Shown one piece after another: positions 39,359-64,000 of a stretch of DNA of 64,000 nt. A program made the translations under genes and the position numbers. The notes under the pieces were generated by a model. The model ran no database searches. It was given only the letters and a program-made list of their open reading frames with translations, and was not told the DNA's origin. The stretch comes from an uncultured delta proteobacterium (GTDB lineage: Bacteria; Desulfobacterota; Desulfobacteria; Desulfobacterales; B30-G6): positions 160,001 through 224,000 of the forward strand of contig CAWGLD010000007.1 in NCBI GenBank assembly GCA_963823335.1, given 5' to 3'. Each line of letters starts with the position of its first letter. The stretch's first letter is position 1.

Positions 39359-39733
39359 ATGAGGATCAAATGGCTTGTTATAATTGCGATATCGTTAATA
39401 ATGATCGGATGCGGGCCACAAACCCGGATTCAAAAGACCTATATTCAAATGGATCATGAAAATGCTGGCGAAGTGATTATTTTCAACTCTTTCGATGAGG
39501 TTGGAAGATCTTACATAAAGGTGGCAGCACTTGAGGTTACCACTCACAAGCCCCCCAATAATACAGAAAGAAACAAAATGATAGAATCCCTCAAATCCAA
39601 GGCTCGCAAAGTTAGTGCAGAGGGTATTGTTATCATTGATGAAGGGCGTCACGTCAGTAGAATACGCTTTGAAGGCCGTTATCGAGATTTCTACATTTTT
39701 TTCATAAAAGGTATCGCAATCGTTTATGAGTAA
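39359..39733 (+). CDS. Hypothetical lipoprotein
   Basis: Lipobox-like LIMIGC; LKSKARKVSAEGIVI. Confidence 0.7.
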   Translation: MRIKWLVIIAISLIMIGCGPQTRIQKTYIQMDHENAGEVIIFNSFDEVGRSYIKVAALEVTTHKPPNNTERNKMIESLKSKARKVSAEGIVIIDEGRHVSRIRFEGRYRDFYIFFIKGIAIVYE

Positions 39734-39782
39734 TACGCCTCAGACTATAACATGTCCTACAGCCCTTTGAATTCTGGTAGTA

Positions 39783-39953
39783 TCTCCAACAATCCGGTAG
39801 ATATCAGACCCCTAATATTTTACCGGTGTGTGAAAATTATCACCACCGACCGAATCTTGCACTGATAGACCCTACCTTGGCATCGTGGGCATAGCCAGAT
39901 GGTATCGGCAATAATTTCGTTGAATTTGATAACTGGACCTATCTCCATGTATC
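39783..39953 (+). repeat. 171-bp array repeat R1
   Basis: TCTCCAAC...TACCGGTGTG...AATCTTGCA...GGTATCGG...TGATAACTGGA..ATCTCCATGTATC. Confidence 0.93.
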
Positions 39954-40020
39954 GGTAGTTGAGTGATATTTGGTTTTCTGAACAGATATCCTAATCAACC
40001 ATCGTGGAAACAGCTAATCC

Positions 40021-40049
40021 TTGACCTCTTTCCCCATGTTATGTATAAA
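40021..40049 (+). promoter_or_regulatory. Sigma70-type promoter
   Basis: TTGACC-17 bp-TATAAA. Confidence 0.65.
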
Positions 40050-40201
40050 TTTAAAGCGCACTTAAATCACAGCTAATCTGATACTGAATAACACTTACAT
40101 CTGACCTGGCCTCCTATTCAATCTGAAAGAACCTTTCCAAGGCATATCATCTTCTATTAACACCCAAGAGGTCTCCCGAGTTTAAGTAAGGAGGAACAAT
40201 C

Positions 40202-41218
40202 ATGAAAACGGCTGCAATCACCGGAAAAGATCGGATGGAAGCTTCCTTTGAAGGAAAAAAATTGGACCGGCACCCTGTATTGCTGTTGCTAGGTGGCCAT
40301 TACGCAGAAATGGCTGGCTACTCCCTTGAGCAGTTTTTAACACAACCGGAAGCTGCCCTGGAGACCTTGAAGCTAACCTGCAAGGAGCTCGATTCTGATG
40401 TCATGTTTGTTCCGCTCAATCCAATGATGCCGGATGCCCTGGAAGCCTTCAGAAAGCTCTTGGGCAAACTGCCGAGCATCAAAAAGGAAGATATCAAAAA
40501 AAAGCTTCCGAAATGGACCGTTAGAAAACCTCGGGAGGATCTACTTTTCAGCGGGCATCTCGACATGTGTGAAACATGTGTCAATGTATTTTCTGAATAC
40601 CATATCGAAACCATGATCGGCGGTCCATGGAGTTTTGCTCTGGAGTTAAGAGGTGCAAACGAAGCAATGCTGGACATATATGACGACAAACCATTCCTTC
40701 ATGACCTCATGAACTACACAACCGAAACCGTTATTGCCAGATGTTTGACTGTCTTGGATATCGGTGTATTCCCCTTCATAGGTGATCCCTCTGCAGGCAT
40801 GAGTCTGATATCACCGGATGTGTATCGAGAGCACGTACTGCCCTATCATAAAAGAATCGTAGATGCAGTGCATGAAAGGGGTGGTCGAATCGCTTTCCAC
40901 ATCTGCGGACACGTGGATCCCATTTTCGAGGACCTCATCGACCTCGGTATCGATGGACTGAGTATCGACGCGCCGTCATCTCTCGAAAAGCTCTTTGAAT
41001 TGGGGAGAGGAAAAACCACGATCATCGGAAATGTGGATCCCATACTCTTTATCGAGGGAACCACTGATCAGCTAGAAGCAGAAGCAAAAAAATGTATGGA
41101 AATCGCCCAGGGGGAAGCCAAATATGTCATTGGTCCAGGCTGTCAGATACCCCTTATGGCAAATCTTGATAACATCCGAGCATTCACAAAAGCCTGCCAC
41201 ACTTACGGAAAGTTTTAG
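40202..41218 (+). CDS. Uroporphyrinogen decarboxylase / MtaA-CmuA family protein
   Basis: GPWSFALELRG, LISPDVYREHVLPY, FHICG, GNVDP, GPGCQIP. Confidence 0.85.
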   Translation: MKTAAITGKDRMEASFEGKKLDRHPVLLLLGGHYAEMAGYSLEQFLTQPEAALETLKLTCKELDSDVMFVPLNPMMPDALEAFRKLLGKLPSIKKEDIKKKLPKWTVRKPREDLLFSGHLDMCETCVNVFSEYHIETMIGGPWSFALELRGANEAMLDIYDDKPFLHDLMNYTTETVIARCLTVLDIGVFPFIGDPSAGMSLISPDVYREHVLPYHKRIVDAVHERGGRIAFHICGHVDPIFEDLIDLGIDGLSIDAPSSLEKLFELGRGKTTIIGNVDPILFIEGTTDQLEAEAKKCMEIAQGEAKYVIGPGCQIPLMANLDNIRAFTKACHTYGKF

Positions 41219-41360
41219 AAGTTATCTCAAAAAAGTTTTTTAGCCCAATTTCTGTGTTGGTCCCTTGCTTCAACTCCTCGGAATACTTGAGTATGCCTGC
41301 GGGTTGAAGTTCGGGCCCGCCTTGAACTTGAGCCAAAATCCTTTTTTTGAGATGGCTCTA
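41216..41360. mobile_element. ERIC-like palindromic element
   Basis: Inverted homolog of 42974-43145; ends TAGAAGTTATCTCAAAAAA / TTTTTTGAGATGGCTCTA; overlaps the preceding TAG stop. Confidence 0.78.
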
Positions 41361-41506
41361 GTCAGAATATTTCATAAAGAATTTCGATTAATCTGCAGTG
41401 ATTGGATTTGGCGCGAAATTTGAACTACAACATGTGACTATGAACGAATAATTGAAAATATCTGGCACGTATCTCAGGATTTTAAAAATCTTAGAAACCT
41501 GAAATC

Positions 41507-41677
41507 TCTCCAACAAAAACAAGGTTATCCGGCACCTGAAATTTTACCGGTGTGCGATTATTATCACAACAGACAGAATCTTGTATTCATAGGTCCTTCC
41601 GTGATACCGTGGTGATCACCAGATGGTATCGGTAATAATTTCATCGTATCTGATAACTGGACATCTCTCCATCTATC
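41507..41677 (+). repeat. 171-bp array repeat R2
   Basis: Colinear with R1; ATCTCTCCA at both ends. Confidence 0.93.
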
Positions 41678-41709
41678 ACCATGCCAAAAGTTAGCATTCA
41701 GGGGATGCA

Positions 41710-42167: not shown

Positions 42168-42338
42168 TTAGCAGTAAAAACAAAGATGTCAGACACATAA
42201 AATTTTACCGGTGTGCGAATATAATCACAATCGACCAAATCTTGCATTCATAACCTTCTCCGTGGTACCGTAAGGATGCCCAAATGGTATCTGACAAATT
42301 CCCAAATTGTCAAATAGTTGGACTTGTCTCCATCTATC
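42168..42338 (+). repeat. 171-bp array repeat R3 (left end degenerate)
   Basis: Colinear with R1; right-arm subtype shared with R11. Confidence 0.9.
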
Positions 42339-42387
42339 CTGTATTGGGATGATAATTTGTGAGCAGCTGGAACCTATAAGGCAACAA

Positions 42388-42564
42388 ATGACATATAATT
42401 TCGATCCTGACCGATGGTACGAAAATGAACTTTTCGTAATTCAATCAAAATATAAATCTGGCCAAATGACCAAACAAGAGCATAATGAGGCAGTCGAGGA
42501 ACTTGATCGAAAGCATACGATGATGTGGGAACGATTAGACGGTTCCTATCAAATTTTAAAATAG
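42388..42564 (+). CDS. Small hypothetical protein (58 aa)
   Basis: MTYNFDPDRWYENE...MWERLDGSYQILK; fills the R3-S1 interval. Confidence 0.65.
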   Translation: MTYNFDPDRWYENELFVIQSKYKSGQMTKQEHNEAVEELDRKHTMMWERLDGSYQILK

Positions 42565-42600
42565 ATATCTGCAACTTGGTCTAACCGGTAATGTTCTCCA
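42564..42600 (+). repeat. 37-bp short site S1
   Basis: GATATCTGCAACTTGGTCTAACCGGTAATGTTCTCCA. Confidence 0.75.
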
Positions 42601-42737
42601 AAAGTTGGCTGGAAGTTGGTTTTCTGACAATCTGACATTTCGTGAGGCTCAAATTACGGTCATCCATTTCCACTATTCAATCATAATATCGCAATAGATG
42701 GCAAATTTTCCATCGAATATTACTGTTCGGGCAAACA

Positions 42738-43279
42738 CTATGAATGCGGTTCATCGCCTGCTAATCTCAGTTTATCACATTCCTCTAAATAAGCTTTAGC
42801 AAGCAATATTTTTCCGTTCACATGACTTGGATTTTCTTGGCAGAAAGGTTCTAATTCTGCTATTACATCATCGTATTTTTCTTGTTCAAACAAACCACAT
42901 GCCTTGGAATATGGATCTGTTGGCTCAGTTGGAGAGAGTTCTCCATACAGTTCTGCCTTTTTACAGATAAGACTAGAAGCCATCTCAAAAAAAGGGTTTT
43001 GGCTCAAGTTCAAGGCGACCTCGAACTTCAACCCGCAGGTGCCCGCAGGAAATGCCCTTGGGGTGCATACTGAAGTATCCCGAGGAGTTGAAGCAAGGGA
43101 CCAACACAGAAATTGGGTCAAAAAACTTTTTTGAGATAGCTTCTAATCTGTTGTTCTGTTGTTCCTTCCTCCGTCATTGCCCTTATGAGGGCTTAAGAAC
43201 AAGGATTGGGCAGACAAAGAGATGGAAACAAGATGGACAATAGTAAGAGGTACGGTAAGATTCTGTGAAGGTGTTTCAT
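42738..43279 (-). pseudogene. Secreted TPR-like protein, disrupted
   Basis: Signal peptide MKHLHRILPYLLLLSILF; in-frame TAA at codon 29; element 42974-43145 interrupts EQQI/SLICKK, which rejoin in frame when it and one TA are removed. Confidence 0.65.
42974..43145. mobile_element. ERIC-like palindromic element with TA duplication
   Basis: Ends TAGAAGCCATCTCAAAAAA / TTTTTTGAGATAGCTTCTA; about 26 extra internal bases relative to 41216-41360. Confidence 0.8.
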
Positions 43280-43483
43280 AGCGGCCATATCCTTTATTAA
43301 GGTTTGGAGCAGCTACTAAAGCACATATATAATTACACCATCAAAAAGATAAAGGAAGGATTAGGGTGTATATACTTGACATTACACGTTATCTTTGGCA
43401 CCTTGCTACTGGTGATGATCAGATTTTGCCTGCAAGACGTTTTATTACTTTTAAATGTTCTGGGAAACTGAGGGAGAGGGTTA

Positions 43484-43849
43484 ATGGTAGATAACTCTCG
43501 TCTGGTATACTCGACTGGCTCCGGACGGATCTGCCCTGATTGCGGAAAGACTGCACAAAAATGTTCCTGCAAAAGGAAGAAAGTCAAACTCCAGAGTAAT
43601 ATACATATTGACGGAATCATTCGTATCAGTAGAGAATCGAAAGGTCGGAAAGGTAAAACGGTGACCGCCATCTCAGGGTTTCATGAAGGTACCGATGACC
43701 TTAAACAGATTGCTAAGAACCTAAAAAGCCACTGTGGTTCCGGTGGTTCGATTAAGGACGGGATTATCATCATTCAGGGGGATCACCGGCAGACGATTCA
43801 AAGTGAATTGCAGAAACAAGGTTTTAAGGTAAAACTTGCTGGTGGGTAA
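43484..43849 (+). CDS. SUI1-family translation factor (YciH-like)
   Basis: SRLVYST, KGRKGKTVTAI, CGSGGSIKDG.IIIQGDHR. Confidence 0.9.
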   Translation: MVDNSRLVYSTGSGRICPDCGKTAQKCSCKRKKVKLQSNIHIDGIIRISRESKGRKGKTVTAISGFHEGTDDLKQIAKNLKSHCGSGGSIKDGIIIIQGDHRQTIQSELQKQGFKVKLAGG

Positions 43850-43978
43850 GACTGTATGAAAAAGATACGGGATGATAACCCAAAAATATGTGGGTGCTTC
43901 CCTTCAGCTTTTCGGGCTGTCTTTGCATGGTTTATGAGCCCGTTAAAAATAGTTTAATAAAAACTGAGGTGATAAGGT

Positions 43979-44581
43979 ATGAAACGGATTCTATGCCATG
44001 GAGACAGTTTGACCGAGGGGACGGATATCGAGGTAGCATACCGCTGGCCGTCCTTGTTGCAAAATGCACTGGGTACAGAGGTGATCAATACCGGTATCGG
44101 GGGCGATACCACAGCAGGACTGCTAAGCCGATTCTCAACAGATGTGATTCCCCGCAAGCCTGATGCGGTGATCCTCATGGGGGGAACCAACGATTTCTGG
44201 TGGGACCTGCCGACCAACAATGTACTTGCCAACCTTTTTTCCATGGCCTACCAGGCCCAGTTTCATGGAATTGCGCCTCTGTTTGGATTGCCAATTCCAC
44301 TTGATGGTGATCGGGCAGCCAAACAACCGTACAGTCCACCTGAATCGGGCTATGACCAACTGCTGATTAAAATGAAGTCTCTGGGACAAAGACTAAAAGC
44401 CGCAGCAGACGAGAGTGATATCCCTGTCCTGGATTTTTACCACCTTTTCATTGATGACGGCGGTCAACTCCGCTCACATTTGTTTTTGGATGACGGAGTG
44501 CATGCCAATCGTCAAGGACATAGACTGATGGCAGAATTGGCCACATCAAAAATTGGGAACCTCTTCTTGTTAAAAACCTGA
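43979..44581 (+). CDS. GDSL/SGNH hydrolase
   Basis: GDSLTEG, NTGIGGDTT, GGTND, DGVH. Confidence 0.9.
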   Translation: MKRILCHGDSLTEGTDIEVAYRWPSLLQNALGTEVINTGIGGDTTAGLLSRFSTDVIPRKPDAVILMGGTNDFWWDLPTNNVLANLFSMAYQAQFHGIAPLFGLPIPLDGDRAAKQPYSPPESGYDQLLIKMKSLGQRLKAAADESDIPVLDFYHLFIDDGGQLRSHLFLDDGVHANRQGHRLMAELATSKIGNLFLLKT

Positions 44582-44606
44582 CCCTTGCGGATCTGGAATT
44601 GAAGCT

Positions 44607-44663
44607 ATGTTTATCTACTTAGACACAGAAACCACTGGCTCAGGATCAGAAGACAGACTTTGC
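44607..44663 (+). pseudogene. 5' stub of a DEDDh 3'-5' exonuclease gene
   Basis: MFIYLDTETTG ExoI motif, then runs into intron-like sequence. Confidence 0.55.
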
Positions 44664-44816
44664 CATGCCTTCCCCTTAACGCTCACCACAATGGCTCTTT
44701 ACCGATGCAGCTTAAGGTGGTTTGAAGCCTGCTCCTGTAAGCCGACTCCGAGGGGCCTGCCCTCATCTTCTGTGCAGTTACGCACACTTTATATTAAAAG
44801 TGCGCTCGTGGCGCAC
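44663..44816 (-). mobile_element. 5' fragment of a group II intron (part of domain I)
   Basis: Minus strand begins GTGCGCCACG (GUGYG 5' splice consensus), then hairpin GCGCACTTT..AAAGTGTGC; no RT ORF or domain V seen. Confidence 0.65.
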
Positions 44817-44825
44817 TTGGAAGCA

Positions 44826-45500
44826 TCAAAGGTTTTGATTGGCATCTGGAAATTTCACATTTTTTAATTTTGTGTTATTGAGTTTAACATTACTCATGTG
44901 AGCATTAGCGAAATTGGTATTGAAAATTTGAGCGTTGTGGAAATTGATCTCTCGCAGTGTTGCATTGCTAAAGTCAGCCAATTGGATGGTGCTATCTGTT
45001 AAGTTGATATGTTCGAGTACCGCGGACTCCCATGTTGAGTATCTGAGGTTGGTACCCGCAAGATTAGTATTTTGGAGTACAGCTTTCGATAAATATGCAT
45101 TATGAAAGAAGGTCCCGCTAAAATCGACATCTGCTACGGTAGCATTGGAAACCTCTGCAAATTGGAGATTGGCTCTGGTAGCATCGCAGCCCTCCAAGAC
45201 AGCCCCTGTCAGGATACTCCATTGAAGATGGGCCTGACTTAGTCGGCATCCCCGAATTATAGCCCCTTGGAAATTAGATGTCCTTAAATTGGCTCCAGAA
45301 AAATTGACATCCTGAATAACCGCTCTTGTCAGGATGACACCAAACAACTCACGACCAGATAGGTCTATTCCTTTCAATTCAGCCTTTTTCCCAAGCTTGC
45401 CCTTTGATTCCAGCCATTGTCGATGATGCATCAGCACCAAATCTAAATCATGAAAGGATATTTTTTTGCGAGGCGTGTTCTGCATATAACTATTTATCAT
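44826..45500 (-). CDS. Pentapeptide repeat protein
   Basis: HRQWLESKG..G..AEL, then A(N/D)Lxx repeats. Confidence 0.9.
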   Translation of the reverse strand: MINSYMQNTPRKKISFHDLDLVLMHHRQWLESKGKLGKKAELKGIDLSGRELFGVILTRAVIQDVNFSGANLRTSNFQGAIIRGCRLSQAHLQWSILTGAVLEGCDATRANLQFAEVSNATVADVDFSGTFFHNAYLSKAVLQNTNLAGTNLRYSTWESAVLEHINLTDSTIQLADFSNATLREINFHNAQIFNTNFANAHMSNVKLNNTKLKNVKFPDANQNL

Positions 45501-45521
45501 ATTTTGTTCGAATTTCTGTTT

Positions 45522-45818
45522 TTAGGGATGTTGGGCCTTCTTAACTGCAGCCGAAAGTACTTCCCTATCTGGAATATTGTCAAAAGCGATACACTCGTTG
45601 ATTACAATTGATGGCACGGCAGGCATTCGGTTACAAATTGCCCTAAGTTCAGCGTGTCGCATCACACCCTCTTTGGACCCGACATCGACCACCGTCCATT
45701 GAAGGGCTCCCTTCTCAAATTCGGGGGCAATTTCCTCCAGTATTGCAAGTGCCAAATCACACAACATGCACCCTTTCTTTTTGGCAATAATTTCGACCAT
45801 TACGTTTTGCGAATCCAT
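45522..45818 (-). CDS. Thioredoxin-like protein
   Basis: GCMLC CxxC and VPSIVIN cis-Pro motif; start uncertain. Confidence 0.7.
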   Translation of the reverse strand: MDSQNVMVEIIAKKKGCMLCDLALAILEEIAPEFEKGALQWTVVDVGSKEGVMRHAELRAICNRMPAVPSIVINECIAFDNIPDREVLSAAVKKAQHP

Positions 45819-46366
45819 GTGCCTATATTCCTTTTCGAGCATCTTCAATTTTAATCTTATATGTTTTTGTCTTAATCCCGAAGTGATATTGCTGTGGTGA
45901 TTGAATGGAGGGTATCGTGCCCTCCATACTCTTGAAAAAATTGTCAGAAATCTACTAATCCAGCAAGAAGAAATATTGTGATACCATCATTTCATTGAGA
46001 GCCTGCTGATTTGTGATACCATGTCTTTCTAATGTTCGTCGAAATGTAATATTCTCTTATGCCAGGTTTGCATGAGGCTGTGATCTGTGGTTGATATCTC
46101 AGGCCTCTGAAGCCAGCAGCGATCAGCACTAAATGCTGCCAATAATTGAATCATAAGCGGCCTCCTTCAACGATCAAGTGATCCGTTGAAATCTGTAAAA
46201 TAGATTGACCGCTTCTGTGTATCAACATATACAGTCTCATTTACGGATTGAAGGCTGCCCGCAGCATGCGAAGCACGGCCGCACGGCAGAACCTGCGGGT
46301 AATGCGCCCACTATTACCGGTTCAAGTCACGCCACATGAACCGGGTATTCTAAAAATAGATTAATC

Positions 46367-47821
46367 ATGACCAACCTACAACATACTGAGAAAAAAGACA
46401 ATTCAAAGATAGAAGATATGCCTGCATTAAAGGCGTCGATAAAAGACGGGGTATCCCACGCAGTGATGATGGGCAGCGGAGAGACCTATCTGGGCCCATT
46501 CGGAATTTTTCTGCACGCCAGCACATTGCAAGTTGGCTTGCTGGCCAGTTTACCGCAACTGTTCGGAGCCGTTATGCAATGGGCAGGAGCTATCAATATG
46601 GACCGCATTCGCAGCCGGCGACAGGTGGTCATTGTCGGCGCCGCAATCCAGGCCTTGACTCTCATTCCCATGGCACTGATCCCATTTTTTTTCGGAAAAG
46701 GATCCTCGCCGGTCCTTTATCTATTGGCATTAATCATGGTCTATCAGGCGGCCAATGGAGCTGTTTTGCCGGTTTGGAACAGTCTGATTGGCGACCTTGT
46801 GCCAACGGATATCCGGGGGCGGTATTTCGGCCAGCGCAACCGTTTGATCGGGATGAGCACCTTTATCGCTCTTTTGATTGCCGGTGTCATCTTGCATATC
46901 TTCGCAAAGGCGGGCATTCCAGAATGGGGGTTTTTGGTGATTTTCTCAATGGCCTTTCTGGCACGACTGAATTCCGTGCGCTGGCTTGCAAAGTATTCCG
47001 ATCCTGAATTCAAGATCATGCCGGACCAAGTTTTCACTTTCCGCCAATTCCTTAGACGATCACCCCGCTCCAATTTTGCCAAATTCGTCTTCTTTATCGG
47101 GGCCATCAATCTCTGTGTGGCATTTTCCGCGCCCTATTTCGCCCTTTACATGCTTAGGGACCTCAAATTCACCTATATTGAATTCACAGTGGTCACAGGG
47201 ATCGTCACCATCACCCAATTTCTCGCCTTTCGCTACTGGGGAGGAATAAGCGATCGATTTGGGAACAAAATGATCCTCAATGTTTGCGGCTGGGGAGTGG
47301 CTGTGGTCCCTGCGCTTTGGGTAGTTTCCCACCACATCCTGTATTTGGTCATCATCCAGATCTACAGCGGATTGGTTTGGTCCGGATTCAGCCTGGCTTC
47401 TGCGAATTTCCTCTTCGATGCGGTCACTCCGCCCAAAAGAGCGCGTTGCGTTGCCTATCAAGGCCTGGTGAACGGAATCTTTGTCATTACCGGATCATTG
47501 GCAGGCGGACTTGTTGCCGGTCATCTGCCTCGCAGTCTCTCTTTAGGTCCTTGGACCTGGAGCCCGACATTCATGCTTCCCGTCATTTTTCTCATTTCCG
47601 GGATCATGCGGATGATCGCAGCAGGGGTCTTTCTGCGAAAATTCAAAGAGGTCCGGCCGGTTGAGCCCATCCGCCATCGGGATTTCATTTTCCGCATCAG
47701 CCACATCCGGCCCATCGCCGGGGCCACCTTTAGTCTGATGACAGGCCCGTTTCGGGAGCACCGGGAGACCCATAAGGTGAATCAAGGTAACAAGGCAAAA
47801 AAGGAACGCGATCGGCAATGA
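46367..47821 (+). CDS. MFS transporter
   Basis: Many TM segments; DLVP.DIRGRYFG.R, WGGISDRFGNK. Confidence 0.88.
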   Translation: MTNLQHTEKKDNSKIEDMPALKASIKDGVSHAVMMGSGETYLGPFGIFLHASTLQVGLLASLPQLFGAVMQWAGAINMDRIRSRRQVVIVGAAIQALTLIPMALIPFFFGKGSSPVLYLLALIMVYQAANGAVLPVWNSLIGDLVPTDIRGRYFGQRNRLIGMSTFIALLIAGVILHIFAKAGIPEWGFLVIFSMAFLARLNSVRWLAKYSDPEFKIMPDQVFTFRQFLRRSPRSNFAKFVFFIGAINLCVAFSAPYFALYMLRDLKFTYIEFTVVTGIVTITQFLAFRYWGGISDRFGNKMILNVCGWGVAVVPALWVVSHHILYLVIIQIYSGLVWSGFSLASANFLFDAVTPPKRARCVAYQGLVNGIFVITGSLAGGLVAGHLPRSLSLGPWTWSPTFMLPVIFLISGIMRMIAAGVFLRKFKEVRPVEPIRHRDFIFRISHIRPIAGATFSLMTGPFREHRETHKVNQGNKAKKERDRQ

Positions 47822-54376: not shown

Positions 54377-54515
54377 ACCGGATCCTAACATTCGGAGATA
54401 TACAAGTTGTCAGTTGCAGACCGCTCCACGGGGCTGTAACTGTTTTTGATGACACATCACAATTGAATTAGCAGTGAACTTTTAGTTTAAAGAAAAACAG
54501 ACTTTATGTCGTACA

Positions 54516-55375: not shown

Positions 55376-55389
55376 CCTGTATTGTACTA

Positions 55390-55560: not shown

Positions 55561-55596
55561 AGTGATTACTCGATAGTTGGTTATAATGGAAGAGCT

Positions 55597-57216
55597 ATGA
55601 ATTTGCTTCAGAATAGGAAGTACATGACTTTTCGTATCCTTGCCACGTTATTAGGTCTGGTATCTTTTTATTCTTTCTCTGCCGCATCGATTATCATCTA
55701 CCCAACAGGAGCTTGGCAAGCTTCTACTCCTGAAGAACAAGGGATGGAATCTCAAGCCCTTGCTGAAATGATGGAGTACATAAAGAAAAACAGTTTCAAC
55801 ATTGATAGTATATCAGTTGTACGAAACGGTTTTATGGTTTTCGATGCATACTTTTGGCCATTTTCAAAGGGGCAAAAGCATATTATTCATTCATGTACAA
55901 AAAGCATTATGTCAGCATTGATAGGCATTGCTATCGATAAAGGATACATTCAAGATGTGAACCAATCCATTATCGATTTTTTCCCAGATAGAGCATTTGC
56001 GAATAATAGTGACCTTAAAAAGTCCATTACGCTTGAAAACCTACTAATGATGGCATCAGGCTTGAAATGCAGGGACTCTTATCTTTATCGCTGGAAGGGA
56101 TTGTTTGAAATGCGATATAGCAGGGATTGGGCTCAATATGTTCTCGACCTTCCCATGGTTGAGCCTCCAGGTAAAAAGTTTGAATATTGCAATGGAGTCT
56201 CATATCTCCTATCTGTCATTATCCAAAATTCAACAAATATGACAACTTTAGATTTTGCAAGAGAGCATCTATTTGATCCCCTTGGCATATTTGAAATTGG
56301 TTGGGCAAATAGTCCTCAGGGTGTTGATATCGGATATGGTGAGATGTGGTTAAAGCCTCATGATATGGCCAAATTTGGATGGCTATATCTAAATAAGGGA
56401 CAATGGGGCAACAAACAGATAATACCTTCAACATGGGTTGAGGTTTCTACACGTGGGCATATCGATACTACGCTTTTTGATCAATATGGGTATCAGTGGT
56501 GGATCGATTCTGCTGGATATTATATGGCTGTTGGATATAAAGGCCAGCGTATTTTCGTTGTGCCGGAAAAAAATATTGTGGCGGTCTTTACCAGTGATCT
56601 GACCGGCAGGAATAGTTTAGTTTCTAAAAATTTGCTGGACTATTACATAATTCCAGCTGCATCTTCACCTACCGTATTATCACCAAACGTGGAAGAACAA
56701 GCCAGACTGGGTGCATTAATAAATAGTGTCGCCAAGGCTCCATTGGCCGGATTTGTTTGGATTTCAGAAAATAAGGGAATAGCGAAAGATGGTGTTTTTA
56801 AGAGAACAGCATCACCGGCTTTTAAGTTTGAGTATCCATTGGGTAGTAAAAAAATAGCAATTGCCTATCCAAGTCAGATAATGAGAATGAGAACTCCAAG
56901 AGACTTTGAATTTTCTGCCTTTGTTGGTGATATCCCTGAGGGTTTAGAGTTAGAAGACTTCGGGCAAAAATTTTATGCCAAGGAGATAGAGAATGTTGGT
57001 TCAGATATCAAAGTCATTATTAATAAAGAAATCACGCTTAAGTGTGGTACGAAAGCATATCAAACGGAACTTACATGGGTATTGAATAATACTATGCTGA
57101 TAAGGACTTTTCTCGTAACAGCATACAAGGATGGGAAATATGTATTTATAGACGCTCACCCATGGAAAAATGAGAATAACGCTGAACTAATTGTTCAGAG
57201 TTTAATATTTAGATAG
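55597..57216 (+). CDS. Serine hydrolase, beta-lactamase class C-like, with C-terminal extension
   Basis: SCTK (SxxK), YCN, LLMMASG, YGYQWW; start uncertain (55597 or 55624). Confidence 0.85.
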   Translation: MNLLQNRKYMTFRILATLLGLVSFYSFSAASIIIYPTGAWQASTPEEQGMESQALAEMMEYIKKNSFNIDSISVVRNGFMVFDAYFWPFSKGQKHIIHSCTKSIMSALIGIAIDKGYIQDVNQSIIDFFPDRAFANNSDLKKSITLENLLMMASGLKCRDSYLYRWKGLFEMRYSRDWAQYVLDLPMVEPPGKKFEYCNGVSYLLSVIIQNSTNMTTLDFAREHLFDPLGIFEIGWANSPQGVDIGYGEMWLKPHDMAKFGWLYLNKGQWGNKQIIPSTWVEVSTRGHIDTTLFDQYGYQWWIDSAGYYMAVGYKGQRIFVVPEKNIVAVFTSDLTGRNSLVSKNLLDYYIIPAASSPTVLSPNVEEQARLGALINSVAKAPLAGFVWISENKGIAKDGVFKRTASPAFKFEYPLGSKKIAIAYPSQIMRMRTPRDFEFSAFVGDIPEGLELEDFGQKFYAKEIENVGSDIKVIINKEITLKCGTKAYQTELTWVLNNTMLIRTFLVTAYKDGKYVFIDAHPWKNENNAELIVQSLIFR

Positions 57217-57234
57217 ACTGCCGATAGCTGGTAC

Positions 57235-58794
57235 CTTTCCTATAGGTAGATGTTGTGGAGGCGAGCGAGCCCGTAGGGTGTAGCTCGCGGAGTCTCCACA
57301 ACTCTATCGATAGGGGTTTTCAAGCCTTAAATTCCCCCGTAATTATCCAATTCCAAAATAATAAAGGTGAAACTCCCCTGTTTAATGAGCCATCAGGTTT
57401 TGGCCTGTGGCATAATTGATGCGTAGTCTGCAATGAAGCAGCTACAAAACAAAAGGAGTTTCACCTATGAAAAAACGAAACATTTATCAGAATCAAAGTC
57501 AAGATTTACTTAGTCTTTTTGAGGCGGCTGGCAGCAGTGAAAAAGTGATGTGCGTGCCGTTAGATTATGCAAAGAAAGATCATTTGGCGATGTTTTGCAA
57601 TGGGTACGGTGATATTTTGCGAAAACCGTTTTCAGTGAAGAACACGCCAGAAGGCATAGCATACATCGATGATCAGGTAACGCGTTCCTGCCGGCGGCGT
57701 GGCATAAAAAAGGAGCATGTCTTTTTTGGTGGTGAAGATGCCAATTCATTTGCGAAAAATTTTGTCAGCACATTACGAAGCAAAGGCTTTCTTGTTGCCA
57801 ATGTGAATGCGCATGACGCAAAAAAACAGCGTGGGAATCTGCAAGCCAGTACTGATCGAATAGATTTAATGGGCATTGCCACCATGCTGTTGAATTGTCG
57901 TGCCAACTGCGGTCCTGCTCAATCCGGCATCTATCGTAATCTTCGCACCCTTGTTCGCCATCGGCGCAAGCTGGTTCAAATGTTAACTGAAGTAAAAAAT
58001 CGAGTGCATGGAATTGTCGATGAGCTTTTCCCCGGATTCTTAAATGAAAAGAATAGCGGTATCGTTCCGTTTACACAAAGTTCACTATACTTGATGGAAG
58101 ATCGTTTTAGTCCGAAACAGATCCGTCGTCGCAGACGTCAAAAGCTGATCGAAATTCTTAAGCGATTTGGTACTTCAAAGGCTGAGAAAACGGCCGCTAA
58201 ACTTCAACAGTATGCGGCAAATGTACTGCATGCCCCGGTTGAATATGTTGATACAATGCAGCTATCCCTGGCCCAGCATGTCAAACACATAAGGTGTTTA
58301 AAAGAAAGTGTTGCGCAGATGGATAAGGAGATAGCGTTGAATCTGTCACAAACCCAAGGCGCTTTTCTGACAAGTGTACGCGGCATTGGTCTTGTTTTGG
58401 CAGCCGGCGTAACCGCTGAGATCGGAGATTTAAATGAACAAAAGTCTCTCAATAATTTGGCATCCTATTCAGGCATCATCCCGCGTGTTAAACAAACCGG
58501 TGGTACCGATGGCAAAACGTATACAGGACCGGTAGCCACCCTGTCCGTCCGAAAACTAATTATGGCTCCAAGGTACTCTGATCCTGGGATCGCTCAGAGA
58601 TCTCGTCATACCAGTTTGTCAAGATCGGACGTTATGGGCAGGGGTTACCACCTGTTATGCTGAACTTTGAATAACTGAAACTGTGATGGCTAAGACTGGT
58701 TCATTTAAAAGATATCAAAACCGGCCCGGACCGGTACAGGGGAAGTGTTGCCTAAAATTTGCGGAGAATATTGGCTTGACTTTATTCTGGTACT
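57235..58794 (+). mobile_element. IS110-family insertion sequence (probably internally deleted)
   Basis: CT at both proposed ends (57235-57236, 58793-58794); joining the ends gives TTGACT-17 bp-TATAGG. Confidence 0.7.
57467..58663 (+). pseudogene. IS110-family transposase, C-terminus apparently truncated after about 58535
   Basis: DEDD-like LDYAK / GGED / TDRID; RGIGLVLAAGVTAEIGD...LASYSGIIP...QTGG, after which the family-like sequence stops. Confidence 0.8.
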
Positions 58795-58973
58795 CCAACT
58801 AATCCACGGTGAAAGGGGCCTCTGAAAAGCTTTGATACCATACTATCCAGCGAATTCCTGACCTAAAAGGTAAGTCTGTCAATTCAAGTATAAGCCAGGA
58901 CATTGTCAAAAGACGGACATTACATTACAAATTCACCACACAAGATTGACTTGACCTGACACCCTTAATTGAT

Positions 58974-59016
58974 GGTATCTGCAATAAGGCCCGAATGATG
59001 ATTGTCTCCATGTATC
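58974..59016 (+). repeat. 37-bp short site S3 plus TGTATC
   Basis: GGTATCTGCAATAAGGCCCGAATGATGATTGTCTCCA-TGTATC, then the R1/R8-type tail. Confidence 0.75.
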
Positions 59017-59043
59017 GGTAATTGGATATATTTGGTTTCATGC

Positions 59044-59072
59044 TTGACTGAAAATATTTCCTTCTGTATATC
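59044..59072 (+). promoter_or_regulatory. Sigma70-type promoter
   Basis: TTGACT-17 bp-TATATC. Confidence 0.58.
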
Positions 59073-59226
59073 AATTAAAACACTTAAATTTCATCTCTTC
59101 TGAAGTTGATGTGCCTTTCCTAAATCTACACTTCATTCTAAGTTGCCCTGTCAAAGCTTTAAACTGCTCTTTTCTCACTTCGATCATTAATAGAAACCAA
59201 ATATGAAAGTGAAAGGAGACCGAAAA

Positions 59227-60120
59227 ATGAAAAGACTATTCATACTGATTCTTTCTTTAATTCTAATGGGATTTGCTGCAGGACAAAAACCGCAGGCTGC
59301 TGAAATTGTAAAACTGACTGAAAAAACAACAAATATTGAGTCTTTTGAAATATGCTATAATGAAGGTGGGAAAGGAGAAACTGTCCTTTTGTTACATGGT
59401 TTTGGTGGAATGAAGGAAATGTGGACTGAATTTGCACAATTTCTTATTCCATCATACCGTGTCATTATTTTAGATCTACCAGGTCATGGGAAAAGCACAA
59501 AAAGCATTGAAGCATCATATACCATTGAAAAGCAGGCAGAGAGAATTGACCAATTTGCTAATTCTTTGGGATTGTCCAAGTTTCATATAGCAGGGAATTC
59601 AATGGGAGGAACCATTTCTGGGGAGTATGCTGTTAATTATCCTGATCGATTATTAAGTTTAGGGTTGTTCGATACAGGCGGGGTTCTTTCTAACAAAATG
59701 AGTGATTTTATATCAATTCTCATGTCCGAAGGAAAAAACATCCTGATTGCAAAAAATCGAGAAGAATATGATAAAGTTTTAGAATTCGTATTTTTTAAAA
59801 TTCCTTCTTGGCCACAAGAACGCATGGATGGAGCTTTTGAAAGAAGTATTGCGGACCCCGAATTAAAGGAAAAAATATTTGAGGACATCACGAATGGATA
59901 CCAAATACCTCTACAATTTAACCTAAATAAAATCAATGCACCAACATTAATTCTTTGGGGTGATAAAGACCGAATCTTAGACGTATCTTGTGCTAAAATT
60001 CTTGAAAAGGGAATTTCAAATTCAAAAACAGTTATTATGAAAGATATGGGTCATTGCCCCCAAATGGAACGTCCAGAAGAAACAGCTAATCATTATATTG
60101 AATATCTACGGAGCATATAA
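59227..60120 (+). CDS. Alpha/beta hydrolase (lipase-like), secreted
   Basis: LLHGFGG, DLPGHG, GNSMGG, WGDKD, GHCPQME. Confidence 0.9.
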   Translation: MKRLFILILSLILMGFAAGQKPQAAEIVKLTEKTTNIESFEICYNEGGKGETVLLLHGFGGMKEMWTEFAQFLIPSYRVIILDLPGHGKSTKSIEASYTIEKQAERIDQFANSLGLSKFHIAGNSMGGTISGEYAVNYPDRLLSLGLFDTGGVLSNKMSDFISILMSEGKNILIAKNREEYDKVLEFVFFKIPSWPQERMDGAFERSIADPELKEKIFEDITNGYQIPLQFNLNKINAPTLILWGDKDRILDVSCAKILEKGISNSKTVIMKDMGHCPQMERPEETANHYIEYLRSI

Positions 60121-60145
60121 TCATAAGAGGTAAAAGAATTCTCTT

Positions 60146-60174
60146 GCAGGGTCAGAAATGGCCCTGCCTTTTTT
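60146..60174 (+). terminator. Intrinsic terminator
   Basis: GCAGGGTCA-GAAA-TGGCCCTGC then T run. Confidence 0.7.
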
Positions 60175-60188
60175 ACAGATTGCCAATA

Positions 60189-60359
60189 TCTCCAACGATT
60201 CGGTAGATATCAGACACTTAAAATATTACCGGTGTGCGAATATATTCACAACAGGTCAAATCTTGCATTCATAGGTGTCTCCATGGTACCTTGGGGATGA
60301 CTATATGGTATCTGACAATTTATCAGATTATCGGATAGTTGGATTTGTCTCCATCTATC
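60189..60359 (+). repeat. 171-bp array repeat R11
   Basis: Colinear with R1; right-arm subtype shared with R3. Confidence 0.92.
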
Positions 60360-60396
60360 TGTAATGGCTGTTATTGGATCATAAGGAAGTTCGATT

Positions 60397-60837
60397 ATGC
60401 CCATTGAGATACAAGATTGTGATGGTGGTATAGGCAATATCATTATAAGTCGAGGGGTGGTTACGGATCAAGAACTTGTCGATACCTTGAATGAACATCT
60501 AACACATAACAAAGAAAAATTAAAAAGATACAAATACATTCTTTTTGATCACACAGCATTAACAAAGTTGGATATCACTAAAGAAACCGTAGAATTTATT
60601 GCAGGACTATGGGAAGACATCTCGAGAGCTAATCCAGATCCTATAACTGCAATGATAGCTAATGTTTCAATTGGAGCTAATATCGATCTTATCAATAGAA
60701 TTTCGAGAATGCATGAATTATTTATTCATCGGTCGTGTTGGGAAACCATGGTATTTAGAACTAAAATAGAAGCGGTGAGATGGATCAAGGAAAAGGTTAG
60801 AGAAAAATTTGGAATTAATAATCTGACATTTGATTAA
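60397..60837 (+). CDS. Hypothetical protein (possibly STAS/SEC14-like)
   Basis: 146-aa ORF filling R11-S4; ends VFRTKIEAVRWI. Confidence 0.68.
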   Translation: MPIEIQDCDGGIGNIIISRGVVTDQELVDTLNEHLTHNKEKLKRYKYILFDHTALTKLDITKETVEFIAGLWEDISRANPDPITAMIANVSIGANIDLINRISRMHELFIHRSCWETMVFRTKIEAVRWIKEKVREKFGINNLTFD

Positions 60838-60869
60838 ACTCAGACATGGTTCACGTGCTCGAAAAAAAA

Positions 60870-60906
60870 GATATCTGCAATTTGGTCTAACTGTGAATAT
60901 TCTCCA
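60870..60906 (+). repeat. 37-bp short site S4
   Basis: GATATCTGCAATTTGGTCTAACTGTGAATATTCTCCA followed by TCTATCTGCAATT. Confidence 0.78.
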
Positions 60907-60949
60907 TCTATCTGCAATTGAAATACAAGGTTCACTAAAAGGAGGAATC

Positions 60950-61426
60950 ATGATAGGCGGGTTGGCCTTCCAAGATGAGTCTTATATTAAAAATAACCAT
61001 TGCTGGGTGTGTGGTAATGATAATCCTTATGGGCTTTATATTAAAAGCCAATGGGATGGTGACGAATCTATTTGCGAATGGGAACCAAAGGATTATCATT
61101 GTGCAGGTTGGCCTATCGTATTAAACGGAGGTGTCATTTCTGGTATTATGGATTGCCACTGTATATGCACAGCCATTGCGGAATATTACAAAGATAAAAC
61201 CTTTGAAGAAAAGGAATCACCAAAATATTGGTTTGCCACAGTCTCACTAAAAGTTGATTTTCTAAAACCAGCTGCTGTAGATAAACCTGTTCAGCTACGG
61301 GCAAAGATTAAGGAAATGCATAAAAAGAAAGCTGTTGTTTCATGCTCTTTATACTCGGATGGTGTAGAATGTGCGCAATGTGAAATGATTGGTGTACGAG
61401 TTCCTGCTAACGTAGGGCAGAAGTGA
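60950..61426 (+). CDS. PaaI-family thioesterase
   Basis: CWVCG.DNPYGL, LNGGVISGIMDCH, TVSLKVDFLKP; AGGAGG RBS. Confidence 0.85.
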   Translation: MIGGLAFQDESYIKNNHCWVCGNDNPYGLYIKSQWDGDESICEWEPKDYHCAGWPIVLNGGVISGIMDCHCICTAIAEYYKDKTFEEKESPKYWFATVSLKVDFLKPAAVDKPVQLRAKIKEMHKKKAVVSCSLYSDGVECAQCEMIGVRVPANVGQK

Positions 61427-61427
61427 C

Positions 61428-61464
61428 GTTATCTGTAATTTGACCGGACTATTGATTATCTCCC
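61428..61464 (+). repeat. 37-bp short site S5
   Basis: GTTATCTGTAATTTGACCGGACTATTGATTATCTCCC, one base after the stop codon. Confidence 0.65.
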
Positions 61465-61604
61465 TATCACAGTTGCTCGGGCTTACATGAAAACCGTGTT
61501 GAATTATTACAACCACAATCTTTATATCCATGGAACAATCTCCCACACTGTGAAATACAAATAATCGACAATATGAAAGCCATCATAAGAACGGAGCTTT
61601 AAAA

Positions 61605-61769
61605 ATGTCCAAGGGTGTTAATGAGAGAAAGCTGACTTGTTCAGATATTGGATACCGTGGAAAACCATTGGACAAGTTATCTAAAGATGAGTTTATTGAT
61701 CTTTGTCTTAAATTAGCCCAATCAATTCATGATTGCTCGACTGACGAAGCACCATGTAAAAATGTTTAA
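61605..61769 (+). CDS. Small hypothetical protein (54 aa)
   Basis: Manual translation MSKGVNERKLTCSDIGYRGKPLDKLSKDEFIDLCLKLAQSIHDC...; GGAG RBS; not in ORF track. Confidence 0.55.
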   Translation: MSKGVNERKLTCSDIGYRGKPLDKLSKDEFIDLCLKLAQSIHDCSTDEAPCKNV

Positions 61770-61869
61770 GCATGTGAACTATGGCTGGATATCCTTGTAT
61801 TGTCGCCTACAATGTGGTATTAACAAAACACTCATGCTAAAATAATTAATGGTCAAAAAATAATACCAC

Positions 61870-62280
61870 GTGAAAGATCAAATTAGAAACAAGAAAGGTT
61901 TTACCCTTGTTGAAGTCATTGCCGTTTTAGTAATTCTGGGTATCCTTGCAGCCGTGGCCATTCCAAAGTTTTTTGATATGCAGGAGAACGCCCGCATTAA
62001 AGGCTTAGCCAGTTGTATTGCGGTATTGAGCGGAGAGGCCAAATTAGCCTTTGCTAATAATATAATAAATGCCGGCCCCGATGGAAGGTATGATGGTTAT
62101 ATAGGCATCGGTGATCCTGATTTCATTGTGACAGGTCAATCTGTAAATACGCCCGCTTCTGGTACTATCAAGTACAAGAACCATCCTGATGTTTATAATC
62201 TTATTTGGACGCCCGGTCCTTCTACCGGACCCGAAAATAAGAAAAGACCTGGATATTTTACCTTGGGCAGTAAGATTTAG
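61870..62280 (+). CDS. Type IV pilin-like protein
   Basis: KKGFTLVEVIAVLVILGILAAVAIP. Confidence 0.85.
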   Translation: MKDQIRNKKGFTLVEVIAVLVILGILAAVAIPKFFDMQENARIKGLASCIAVLSGEAKLAFANNIINAGPDGRYDGYIGIGDPDFIVTGQSVNTPASGTIKYKNHPDVYNLIWTPGPSTGPENKKRPGYFTLGSKI

Positions 62281-62348
62281 CAATTGACAAAGACACATTT
62301 CACGGAACCTAAGTAGGGTCAATTTTAGCCCTATTCTTTTTGGTGACA

Positions 62349-62515
62349 TCTCCAAACGGTAGATATCAGACCCCTGAAAATTTACCGGTGTGCGAAAATA
62401 ATCACAATAGACCAAATCCTGCATTGATAGGGTCTCCCATGGTGCGCTGGGCATGACCAGATGGTATCGGCAATAATTTGGTTGAGTTTGATAACTGGAC
62501 TTATCTCCATCAATC
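62349..62515 (+). repeat. ~167-bp array repeat R12
   Basis: Colinear with R1; shortened left spacer. Confidence 0.92.
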
Positions 62516-62741
62516 ACAGATTTCAAATTCAATATTTATTAGCGTAACCTTCGGTTTTGACGTATTTTCCTCAACCCCAAGATGTTGCGGTTGTAGATTC
62601 TTATAATCTGAAAGCGACGGATCATGCTATCAGATATTTCATTGCAGGTGATTGTCTCCACATCTCACACTTGCATCACAGGATAGCTAAGAAAAGATGA
62701 CATGATTGGAGATTCATATTTTCAGAATTTAGGAGGGAAAA

Positions 62742-64000
62742 ATGAAAATATTTATTTTAAGTTTTCGTAAAATAATATTTTGTATTCTTGCTTTTTTCCT
62801 TTTCGCATTCGTGACTGAAAATGCAGTTGGCGAACAATCCAAAGAGCGCGAATACTGGCCAACCTCAGGTTGGAAGACTTCAATCCCAGAGAAGCAGGGG
62901 ATGGATTCCGCCAAACTATTGATAGCAGACGAGTTTATTCAGAACAGACTTCCCGATGCATTTAGCTTGCTGGTTGTCAAGAATGGCTATTTAGTCTTTG
63001 AGAAATATTACTCGTTGGGAAGTCGGGAAAAATATGCTGACGTCCATTCCGTTACTAAAAGTTTTACATCAGCCTTAATTGGTATCGCACTGGACAAAGG
63101 TTATCTTAATAGTGTTGATCAAAAACTTGTCGATTTTTTTCCTGAATATATCACTGATGAATCAGATCCGATGAAACAGGAGATCAGTCTTAGACACCTA
63201 TTAACAATGAGTGCCGGGTTTAAGTGGAACGATTGGGGTCCTAGCATGCGGAACTGGTTATATTGTTCTTCGAATTGGGTAAAATCTGCGATTCAACTCC
63301 CGCAAGAAAATACTCCGGGTGACATATTTAATTACAATTCATCAACGTCACATCTTCTGTCAGCAATCCTGTCAAAATCTTCTGAAACAAACACGTTGGA
63401 TTTCGCAAAGCAATACCTTTTCGAACCATTAGGGATTCAATCAGCCTATTGGCATGAAGACCAGCAAGGATACCATATTGGCGGTTTTGGTTTGGGTTTT
63501 TCAGCACGGGATTTGGCAAAATTCGGCTTCCTGTACTTAAATAATGGGTATTGGAATGGTCAATCTATTGTCTCTGAATTTTGGGTGAATCAATCGACCA
63601 GTCAACAAATACAAGCCTGTCAAGCCATCCCATTTATGGTAAATTTGGGTATGGGTATCAATGGTGGGTGAAAAAAGTCGATGGTTGCAAAAGCTATAGG
63701 GCACTGGGGAAGGCGAGGACAATTCATTGTGGTCGTTCCGGAACTGGATCTTGTCATTGCAGTAACATCCAACCCCGTGCAGCCTCACCCGCCGACTTCC
63801 ATTCATTACAATCCTCTTTTTGATCTGGTTGCAGCCGCTGTTAAAAGGAATAGGCCGCCGAAAAAACCACTGGTTGCTGTTGAATTGCCCCCTGATGTGA
63901 AGACCTTCATATCTGACTATAATCAAGCCAGATATGATAAATCTAGAAAATGTCAGAGCTGATTTCGGATCGTTTTCTCCATGAGGGAGTTACCAAGCAA
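62742..64000 (+). pseudogene. Serine hydrolase (class C beta-lactamase-like), frameshifted, running off the window
   Basis: SVTK, YNS; family sequence continues in other frames (YGYQWW in 63581-63823, GQFIVVVPELDLV in 63681-63962). Confidence 0.75.

Follow-up and report, generated by a model that had tools for sequence, protein, structure and literature searches.

What gathers unrelated single genes into a row, each beside a copy of the same long repeat, in a genome where no integron integrase scores above cut-off? The question is raised by a 64,000-nt window of DNA from an uncultured member of the Desulfobacterales (GTDB lineage B30-G6), in which twelve copies of a repeat of about 175 bp, all on the + strand, follow a tRNA-Arg(CCG) gene. 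An earlier account made from the letters alone (the sequence-only reading) had proposed that these copies, together with five short related sites, form a gene-capture or shuffling platform that uses a site other than attC and a recombinase it could not name. The first part of this proposal is supported by the co-oriented arrays, by the recurrence of units in other contexts and by breaks of identity at the repeat ends. For the second part there is now a candidate, a Xer-like tyrosine recombinase whose gene is nested in copies of the same repeat and which may act on the sites. On balance, we regard it as probable that the region belongs to a cassette platform of integron-like kind, one that has sites and a recombinase of its own. 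The present genome (4.37 Mb, 93.9% complete) is referred to below as G000 and the genomes of relatives as G001, G002, G004, G005 and G007; contigs are given after a colon or, for G000, by number alone, the window being G000:C7:160001-224000.

The repeat search recovered the twelve co-oriented copies where they had been placed by the sequence-only reading, with essentially the same consensus, as one family 66-83% identical to a reference copy; their alignment has 59 invariant columns and a mean column identity of 73%. An nhmmer profile of the repeat detects them at E values of 1e-44 to 1e-52 and gives no match on C7 before 199781 (window 39781), which agrees with the claim that the 39 kb ahead of the tRNA-Arg(CCG) are free of copies. 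The array runs past the window, to a total of 19 copies between C7 199781 and 235835, all on the + strand. The five short sites are likewise real: each consists of ATCTGCAA(T), about 19 nt and TCTCC, and matches the 3′ part of the long repeat with a shorter spacer. Between successive sites in the window, exactly one + strand gene is found in 14 of the 16 complete units, close to the earlier 'nearly always'; the two exceptional units are a 5.7-kb stretch (42595-48278) and the unit with an IS110-family element. To the window genes Pfam assigns URO-D, DnaJ, Sod_Ni, a Cys-rich zf-like domain, Rhodanese with YceI, Acyl_transf_3, Lcl_C/DUF1566, DUF2141, two Beta-lactamase-family proteins, an alpha/beta hydrolase, 4HBT and an N_methyl pilin, in agreement with the list made by eye. 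Beyond that list it identifies SUI1, a GDSL lipase, an MFS transporter, a minus-strand pentapeptide protein and the IS110-family transposase, the last of which had been missed. The statement that no integrase was in view was right for a tyrosine recombinase within the window.

Genome-wide, the profile gives 89 matches at E<1e-3, of which 52 are near full length. They form about a dozen clusters and are co-oriented inside the long arrays, with matches on both strands in two clusters (C1 141-165 kb and C4 145-181 kb). Rather than lying scattered without regard to gene boundaries, the copies stand in co-oriented arrays beside co-oriented genes: among the near-full-length copies, the neighbouring open reading frame (ORF) has the orientation of the repeat in 47/52 cases upstream and 46/52 downstream, with a median gap of 60 bp from the preceding stop codon to the repeat and of 223.5 bp from the repeat to the next start codon. 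In blastn searches the repeat turned up in 12 of 14 further genomes from the family and in the one genome (1/1) from a second family; the 25 other families sampled from the order gave no match.

The repeat, hereafter also the module, is best conserved in three zones, namely the 5′ start, a central block (TTACCGGTGTGCGAAAATAATCAC) and the 3′ end. The 5′ start (L part) reads CTCCAAC, then A-rich sequence, then GATATC. The 3′ end (R part) reads GGTATCGGTAAT, about 20 nt and then GATAACTGGA-CTTNTC-TCCATGTATC, that is, two inverted arms of 10 bp around a 6-bp spacer, which is the layout of a Xer, Cre or FLP-type core; it is also the sole fully conserved small stem picked up by RNAalifold. A ATCGGTAAT-like word occurs three times, direct in the R part, once more just past the core and, in the L part, in inverted form. 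A direct CTCC is common to the two module ends, and inverted termini were not seen. A 28-bp dif-like 'empty site' rebuilt from the cassette ends, with an inverted ATTRCCGAT before the L start and ATCGGTAAT past the core, was tried and dropped, its upstream arm being conserved at 0.1-0.7 bits.

Neither is the repeat an attC site nor the region what is left of a classical integron, because Rfam matches, a fold, covariation, a GTTRRRY box and an IntI above cut-off in the genome were all found to be lacking. Thus, the Rfam search of window 38000-64000 at E ≤ 1 gave six matches, none on any repeat copy, and of the 27 pairs predicted by RNAalifold none shows a compensatory change. One copy folded as single-stranded DNA had z = -1.28 for the top strand and +0.50 for the bottom strand; over the 52 full copies the mean z is -0.86 (top) and -0.65 (bottom), and the ends pair in 10/52. 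No GTTRRRY box was found at the repeat 3′ end, and the best integron-integrase score in the whole of G000 is 88.5 bits against a cut-off of 265. The sequence-only reading, which had set the repeat apart from attC, is upheld, the repeat being without hairpin or R''/R' boxes and the genome without IntI. Promoter-like and terminator-like matches in the repeats are not enriched over shuffles (26 vs 24.0 expected, and 6 vs 5.6). A sigma-70-like match (TTGTGA, 17 nt, then TAAAAT, TACAAT or TATTAT) recurs in the L part, where it points outward, antisense to the upstream gene.

Whether the units move is best judged from where shared sequence begins and ends. A 20-kb array query against five congeners returned isolated units only, on different contigs, and the order of the genes is not kept. 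Shared units are 90-100% identical between species, as against 81-86% for core DNA beside the tRNA-Arg, and a further one, a beta-lactamase-like unit, is 79% identical to G004:C3. In eight of the nine pairs examined, high identity has its 5′ limit at a TCTCCAT(N)TATC core, belonging either to a repeat or to a short site, left of which the two partners are often quite different. The 3′ limits lie at or beside the CTCC(A/T)AC of the L start in five pairs, in one of which another mobile element sits in G007 exactly at that junction; of the remaining pairs, one ends at the next R core (the in-array duplicate), one in mid-repeat and one at the start of a 5′-truncated repeat. The duplicate starts and ends inside the 12-mer TCTCCATGTATC although the upstream repeats differ, and it carries the gene and the whole module; among 49 core-to-core intervals in G000 there are one full duplicate and one partial one. 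Compared in this way, both module ends appear to behave as exchange points, with module and gene travelling together or apart.

The setting of the window array adds a second layer to this picture. The whole of the C7 array is enclosed by a 43-kb island with the tRNA-Arg at its left and its far end past the window, where a tyrosine integrase of ordinary type is found. Gene order 3′ of the tRNA-Arg is not common to relatives: in four congeners homology to C7 ends 13-70 bp past the tRNA, beside which core DNA is 81-86% identical, and no stretch of at least 300 bp from C7 190-250 kb was found in the 8-20 kb that follow their tRNA-Arg. The idea of a gene-capture platform stands, with one correction, namely that this array lies in a tRNA-Arg island that has its own, ordinary integrase.

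A candidate enzyme is found elsewhere in the genome. Of the 11 PF00589 matches in G000, one lies inside a split repeat on C1, whose L and R parts enclose a tyrosine-recombinase gene that runs antisense and has a terminator hairpin of its own. The same order, L part, antisense recombinase, R part, is seen in G001:C18, and a truncated copy, 96% identical, follows an L part on C9; adjoining this truncated copy is a lysine/alanine-rich ORF with a match to the histone H1-like HC2 family. Among 80 loci from metagenome-assembled genomes of Desulfobacterales, the R part is directly upstream of the recombinase gene in 12 and the L part directly downstream in 5, always on the opposite strand, the remaining recombinases (55-65% identity) being too distant for the repeat profile. 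When the 175-bp repeat is compared with the 1.1-kb recombinase unit, L aligns at 51/66 positions and R at 46/53. The repeat retains both ends of the unit without some 900 bp of its interior and is far more numerous than the form that carries the recombinase; since its L and R ends flank the recombinase gene, we take the 175-bp repeat, on these alignments, to be the recombinase-less form of the 1.1-kb unit. A derivation of the repeat middle (profile 68-110) from the 5′ end of the recombinase gene was also considered; that alignment was scattered and gave no support. At three loci (C1 164846, C9 36155 and G001:C18) the recombinase unit heads an array, divergent from the cassettes and with the R core between, and at other loci it is internal. 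Around the two variant recombinase units (57-60%) on G007:C16, no solo copy of the ends lies within 40 kb.

The recombinase has 278 residues, with the size (core-binding plus catalytic domains) and the catalytic residues of a simple tyrosine recombinase; R142, K165, H224, R227, H251 and Y260 are invariant in an alignment of eight sequences. The nearest solved structures are XerA (4a8e, E = 9.6e-15), XerD and XerA, and the alignment to 4a8e runs end to end with no large insertion. All NCBIfam scores are below cut-off (XerA_Arch 112-113 bits vs 220, XerC/XerD 47-61 vs about 330), and intact nested recombinases reach 32-44 bits with the integron-integrase model TIGR02249, whose cut-off is 265. 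Homologues at E ≤ 1e-5 number 4196, many of them on contigs of about 1.0-1.4 kb, and the cultured Desulfosarcina widdelii and D. variabilis carry the recombinase. It is present in 7 of 14 other genomes of the family, all of them repeat-positive. To judge from its sequences, the family looks functional.

The gene is, however, broken in a regular manner. In every copy first inspected, in the genus and the family, the frame changes after the first ~22 codons, all that follows being in the +1 frame, with the join at TCN-A9-TAC. In a frame survey of 44 loci with the N-terminus covered, 33 have A9 and are out of frame; one has A8 and is in frame, one has A8 with another defect, six have no run and an open frame, and three have A6, A7 or A10. 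Intact 278-aa proteins reading ...SKKNT... occur in metagenomes. The A9 state is retained down to 58% protein identity and is present in the complete genomes of two cultured Desulfosarcina strains, and for these reasons the frame break is neither an assembly error nor simple decay. Slippage-dependent switches have been described for some insertion sequence (IS) transposases, and we read the A9 run as such a switch of the recombinase.

How would such a platform work? In the mechanism that we propose, each repeat of about 175 bp would be a recombination module, with a Xer-type core (GATAACTGGA-CTTNTC-TCCATGTATC) at its 3′ end and a second CTCC motif, CTCCAAC, at its 5′ end; the ~120 bp between these ends, with the ATCGGTAAT-like words, would serve as accessory DNA. 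CTCC junctions would bound the single-gene units, which would be excised, probably as circular intermediates, and re-inserted by site-specific recombination between directly repeated modules, and the short 37-43-bp sites would be versions of the module made of the R part only. The enzyme acting on these cores would be the 278-aa simple Xer-like tyrosine recombinase, encoded antisense between the L and R parts of special module copies. The A9 run at codons 19-21 would throttle its expression, and the loss of one A, by transcriptional slippage or as a mutational switch, would give the full protein. In its boldest form this amounts to an independent invention of the integron principle, whereby a dedicated Xer-like recombinase, turned on only by A9 slippage, acts on double-stranded arm-spacer-arm cores in 175-bp modules, fills about a dozen banks of cassettes (~90 sites) in each genome among the Desulfobacterales of marine sediments and trades single genes between species; this complete version we put forward tentatively, giving it somewhat less than an even chance.

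Several observations weigh against the platform. Among the shared units, the 3′ limits are not uniform, and 'gene plus downstream site' is thus not the only form that a unit takes; the GDSL-lipase pair, sole exception of the nine, has no site at either end; and the same two genes are adjacent with a module in G002:C76 and without one in G000:C1, from which it follows that the module can come and go alone, as a mobile mini-element would. An unoccupied docking site, in which an R core is directly joined to an L start, was found 0 times against 50 R and 43 L junctions (G000 and the fetched loci), and conservation upstream of the L start is weak (0.1-0.7 bits). As for the enzyme, the window array is without a nested recombinase gene; it begins at a tRNA and is part of an island whose integrase is a different one. 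In G000 there are two copies of the gene, one with the A9 frame break and one truncated. The recombinase is found in 7 of the 12 repeat-positive relatives, several repeat-rich genomes having no match to the query used, and D. widdelii has the recombinase with the end sequence in four copies only. Public contigs gave no direct sign of recombination, holding short joints only that are not interpretable; the search covered four public DNA runs from four studies against window 44001-64000, where repeat-to-repeat joints were short, with short sides or unknown letters between, and cover was uneven.

Some of these points are just what the main rival explanation would lead one to see. It holds that the repeat is a recombinase-less miniature, akin to a miniature inverted-repeat transposable element (MITE) but served by a tyrosine recombinase, of a 1.1-kb integrative mini-element, and that it gathers downstream of genes in accessory islands, the genes being bystanders reshuffled by island turnover or by homologous recombination between copies. 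The L and R parts that flank the recombinase gene fit such an element, as do the many partial and split repeat copies, the module present or absent between the same two genes, the same CTCC at both module ends (as in the attL/attR of an integrated element), the recombinase contigs of ~1.0-1.4 kb that are common in metagenomes and the plentiful other small mobile repeats in the genome. Bystander genes sit less well with the presence of single units in other species, where in 8/9 pairs the break in identity falls exactly on a core, with the regular alternation of gene and module in which no two modules are adjacent, or with the strict orientation within arrays. Homologous exchange, for its part, would have had too little shared sequence to work with in the duplicate, whose left repeats differ up to the 12-bp core. 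Weighing these together, we find the mini-element unlikely, if the rival to be taken most seriously.

The platform could also be real and its enzyme a different one. Host XerC/XerD might use the sites, as in Acinetobacter dif modules, the nested recombinase being a passenger or regulator; the R core is laid out as arm, spacer and arm like a Xer site, G000 encodes two full-length tyrosine recombinases of Xer size, on C3 and C5, and genomes in which no nested recombinase was found still have arrays. The nested gene, however, is always at the same place inside the module, in many genomes, and the sites are 175-bp direct repeats rather than 28-bp sites such as those of dif modules, which alternate in orientation, so that we consider this improbable. 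Still less credit is due to a shared regulatory element (promoter, leader RNA, terminator or small RNA) of an exported- or stress-protein regulon. Such an element would suit the intergenic place of the repeat, its one orientation, the ~220 bp to the next start codon and the TTGTGA-17-TAAAAT match recurring on the antisense strand of the L part, but not its failure to match Rfam, the 0/27 compensatory pairs, folding no better than shuffles and promoter- or terminator-like sites at background frequency, nor the unrelated functions of the genes, the recombinase gene nested in the element and the shared units that break at its ends. Hardest of all to believe is a classical integron array without integrase (CALIN) and with unusually long attC. 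One gene per site in a single orientation, an L start (CTCCAAC) that, as read from the sequence, has 6/7 positions of the R'' consensus, and a group II intron and an IS110-family element in the array, as in integrons, are met here by a module that forms no hairpin on either strand, by a 3′ end without GTTRRRY and by the integrase scores given above, both for the genome and for the associated recombinase.

How does the platform that we favour compare with known systems? The textbook example of a machine for gene capture is the integron, whose defining parts are IntI and folded attC sites. Like integrons, the present arrays are long co-oriented rows of mostly single unrelated genes, each beside one conserved repeat; units occur in other species and contexts with breaks at the repeat; in some arrays the tyrosine recombinase is divergent from the cassettes with a recombination core between; and other mobile elements (group II intron, IS110-family, DDE-type IS) settle in the array. 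Unlike them, the enzyme here is a 278-aa simple Xer-like protein with no sign of the IntI insertion, and the site is a non-palindromic, unfolded 175-bp module whose arm-spacer-arm core is suited to double-stranded recombination. Both module ends are putative exchange points, the recombinase is nested in the site and there are many arrays per genome. As for integron cassettes, most units consist of one ORF and one site and are co-oriented, and they appear individually mobile. The system works like an integron and has neither of the two things that define one, IntI and attC. With MITEs it shares a repeat that keeps the ends of a larger recombinase-carrying unit and outnumbers the autonomous form; it differs in showing no terminal inverted repeats or transposase-type target duplication and in the confinement of its copies to ordered co-oriented arrays. 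Direct IS26 copies alternate with single resistance genes in rows built by conservative insertion of one IS plus one gene, through a DDE transposase, and cer/psi sites combine a Xer core with ~180 bp of one-sided accessory DNA that favours excision between direct repeats and only resolve plasmid multimers. To our knowledge, neither builds chromosomal cassette banks.

The nearest precedent, compared by description only, is the rAID-1 arrays of gut Bacteroidales (Ross et al., bioRxiv 10.1101/471110), which are widespread in one bacterial order, are of low G+C and consist of immunity genes co-directional with a recombinase that lies 5′ of the array; they are recognized by a recombinase of XerD-like type whose identity to the prototype from B. 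fragilis is at least 44%. Unlike what is described there, the recombinase here runs antisense inside the repeat, genes of general accessory metabolism and of the envelope make up the cargo, and the host belongs to a marine-sediment sulfate-reducer lineage. Acinetobacter plasmid dif modules (pdif) are small accessory-gene modules bounded by Xer-type sites, 28 bp long and served by host XerCD, and are shuffled between replicons (PMC6449649, PMC13141974); IS elements specifically target dif sites (PMC10132070). The present system has a 10-6-10 core; it differs from those accounts in its 175-bp direct repeats with long accessory DNA, its dedicated element-encoded recombinase and its chromosomal arrays of up to 19 units. 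As far as these descriptions go, neither rAID-1 nor the dif modules have a nested, recoded recombinase or a two-ended 175-bp module. Our literature searches, which yielded papers on integrons and tyrosine recombinases, returned no description of the present system.

If the platform is what it seems to be, it would be a second system with the outcome of the integron, reached by means of an unadorned Xer-like enzyme whose sites do not fold and whose slippage switch is built in; cassette banks would then be a general solution, attainable from the parts of chromosome resolution. The scale would be considerable, with ~90 sites per genome, sites in 12/14 further genomes from the family and recombinase homologues by the thousand in metagenomes, and much of the pool of mobile genes in anoxic sediments would be escaping integron-finding software. 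The 26-bp core, the 278-aa enzyme and the A8/A9 switch are parts open to experiment that could serve as a recombination tool, and experiments are possible since cultured Desulfosarcina strains carry the recombinase.

Table. Features of the window array, its island and related loci in G000. Positions are those of the window unless a contig is named.
Feature	Position	Strand	Remarks
tRNA-Arg(CCG)	38846-38921	+	ARAGORN; sole tRNA in window; left border of 43-kb island
Repeat copy 1	39781-39956	+	L part, middle, R part with core
Repeat copy 2	41505-41678	+	
Repeat copy 3	42169-42339	+	L start atypical
Repeat copy 4	48118-48291	+	
Repeat copy 5	49237-49411	+	
Repeat copy 6	50096-50263	+	L start degenerate
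Repeat copy 7	51760-51934	+	
Repeat copy 8	53412-53588	+	
Repeat copy 9	54515-54687	+	
Repeat copy 10	55388-55563	+	
Repeat copy 11	60187-60362	+	
Repeat copy 12	62350-62516	+	last copy in window, array continues
Short site S1	42564-42600	+	R-part-like: ATCTGCAA motif, ~19 nt, TCTCC
Short site S2	50707-50743	+	
Short site S3	58974-59016	+	
Short site S4	60870-60912	+	
Short site S5	61428-61470	+	most degenerate
DnaJ-domain unit	48278-49242	+	98% to G007:C20:117005-117971, different context; identity begins at TCTCCAT
Ni-superoxide-dismutase unit	49383-50222	+	95% to G004:C12; identity from R core to ~95 bp into copy 6
Rhodanese-YceI unit	50743-51758	+	90% to G001:C17; identity begins at TCTCC of S2 and stops shortly ahead of the copy 7 L start
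DUF1566 (Lcl_C) gene with downstream repeat copy 9	53575-54686 (C7 213575-214686)	+	duplicated at C7 226984-228096, 4 mismatches
Shared unit	C4 540841-541820		98-100% to G001:C18
Shared unit	C1 1513166-1514806		about 92-96% to G007:C20
Shared unit	C9 about 45520-46501		96-100% to G005:C2
Shared unit	C9 46741-47269		about 92% to G004:C19
Split repeat around recombinase	C1 163779-164846		L part (profile 4-66) 164846-164784; R part (profile 111-176) 163844-163779
375-aa tyrosine integrase	C7 240497-241925 region		ordinary type; adjoins degenerate tRNA-Arg 3′ half at far end of island
Degenerate copy of tRNA-Arg 3′ half	C7 241868-241925		right island border, past window
Sigma-70-like matches, L part	49274-49302, 50124-50152, 53449-53477	-	
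Longer repeat variant	C1 96189-96636; C9 19150-19586		also three places in G007:C20
ORF with HC2 match	C9 36873-37136	-	
Cyclase+TPR gene	C1 148275-150086		decayed copies C1 103189, C1 151855, C1 165271, C9 38009, C9 41659
105-bp long-hairpin element	57223-57327		solo copies C1:117029, C1:1248160, C4:170875, C9:36073 and elsewhere
IS110-family transposase gene	57467-58663		DEDD_Tnp_IS110 + Transposase_20
Group II intron, 5′ fragment	44653-44816	-	just downstream of minus-strand pentapeptide gene
Group II intron, complete	C7 about 233003-234923	-	reverse transcriptase + maturase ORF; further along array
DDE transposase IS	C7 about 231158-232936		DDE_Tnp_1_6, DUF772; inverted ends
140-175-bp repeat	41216-41357 and 42974-43147		the two are inverted
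Core-like sequence	53404-53415		ATTCCATGTATC

Two variations on the module itself were seen. The longer repeat variant consists of the module plus ~260 bp downstream, a conserved block in two species (82-90% identity), and may be a larger non-autonomous form. Directly 5′ of repeat copy 8, the core-like sequence abuts a defective L start (TCAAAC), and this junction looks like an almost empty unit or a fused junction. Among the genes carried, an adenylate/guanylate cyclase + TPR multi-copy family (70-82% DNA identity) recurs within the arrays of G000 and relatives.

Other mobile DNA is found in and around the array. The IS110-family transposase gene is preceded by the 105-bp long-hairpin element, which has no Rfam match and recurs as solo copies of this left-end piece, 87-100% identical; several of them abut a repeat L start, and it is the 105-bp piece that sits in G007 at the L junction of the DnaJ unit. 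The IS110-family element may target these sites, and its hairpin region may encode its guide (bridge) RNA. Both group II introns are antisense to the cassettes, the complete one lying directly after the palindrome CAAGATCTTG, outside the recombination core. The DDE-type IS lies inside a repeat R core, where it splits TCTCC from (T)CCATTAATC. The 140-175-bp repeat is unrelated to the module and occurs in both orientations at many loci in the five congeners searched, where its copies are 91-96% identical to the 41216-41357 stretch and 77-94% to that at 42974-43147; it looks like a young, active MITE.

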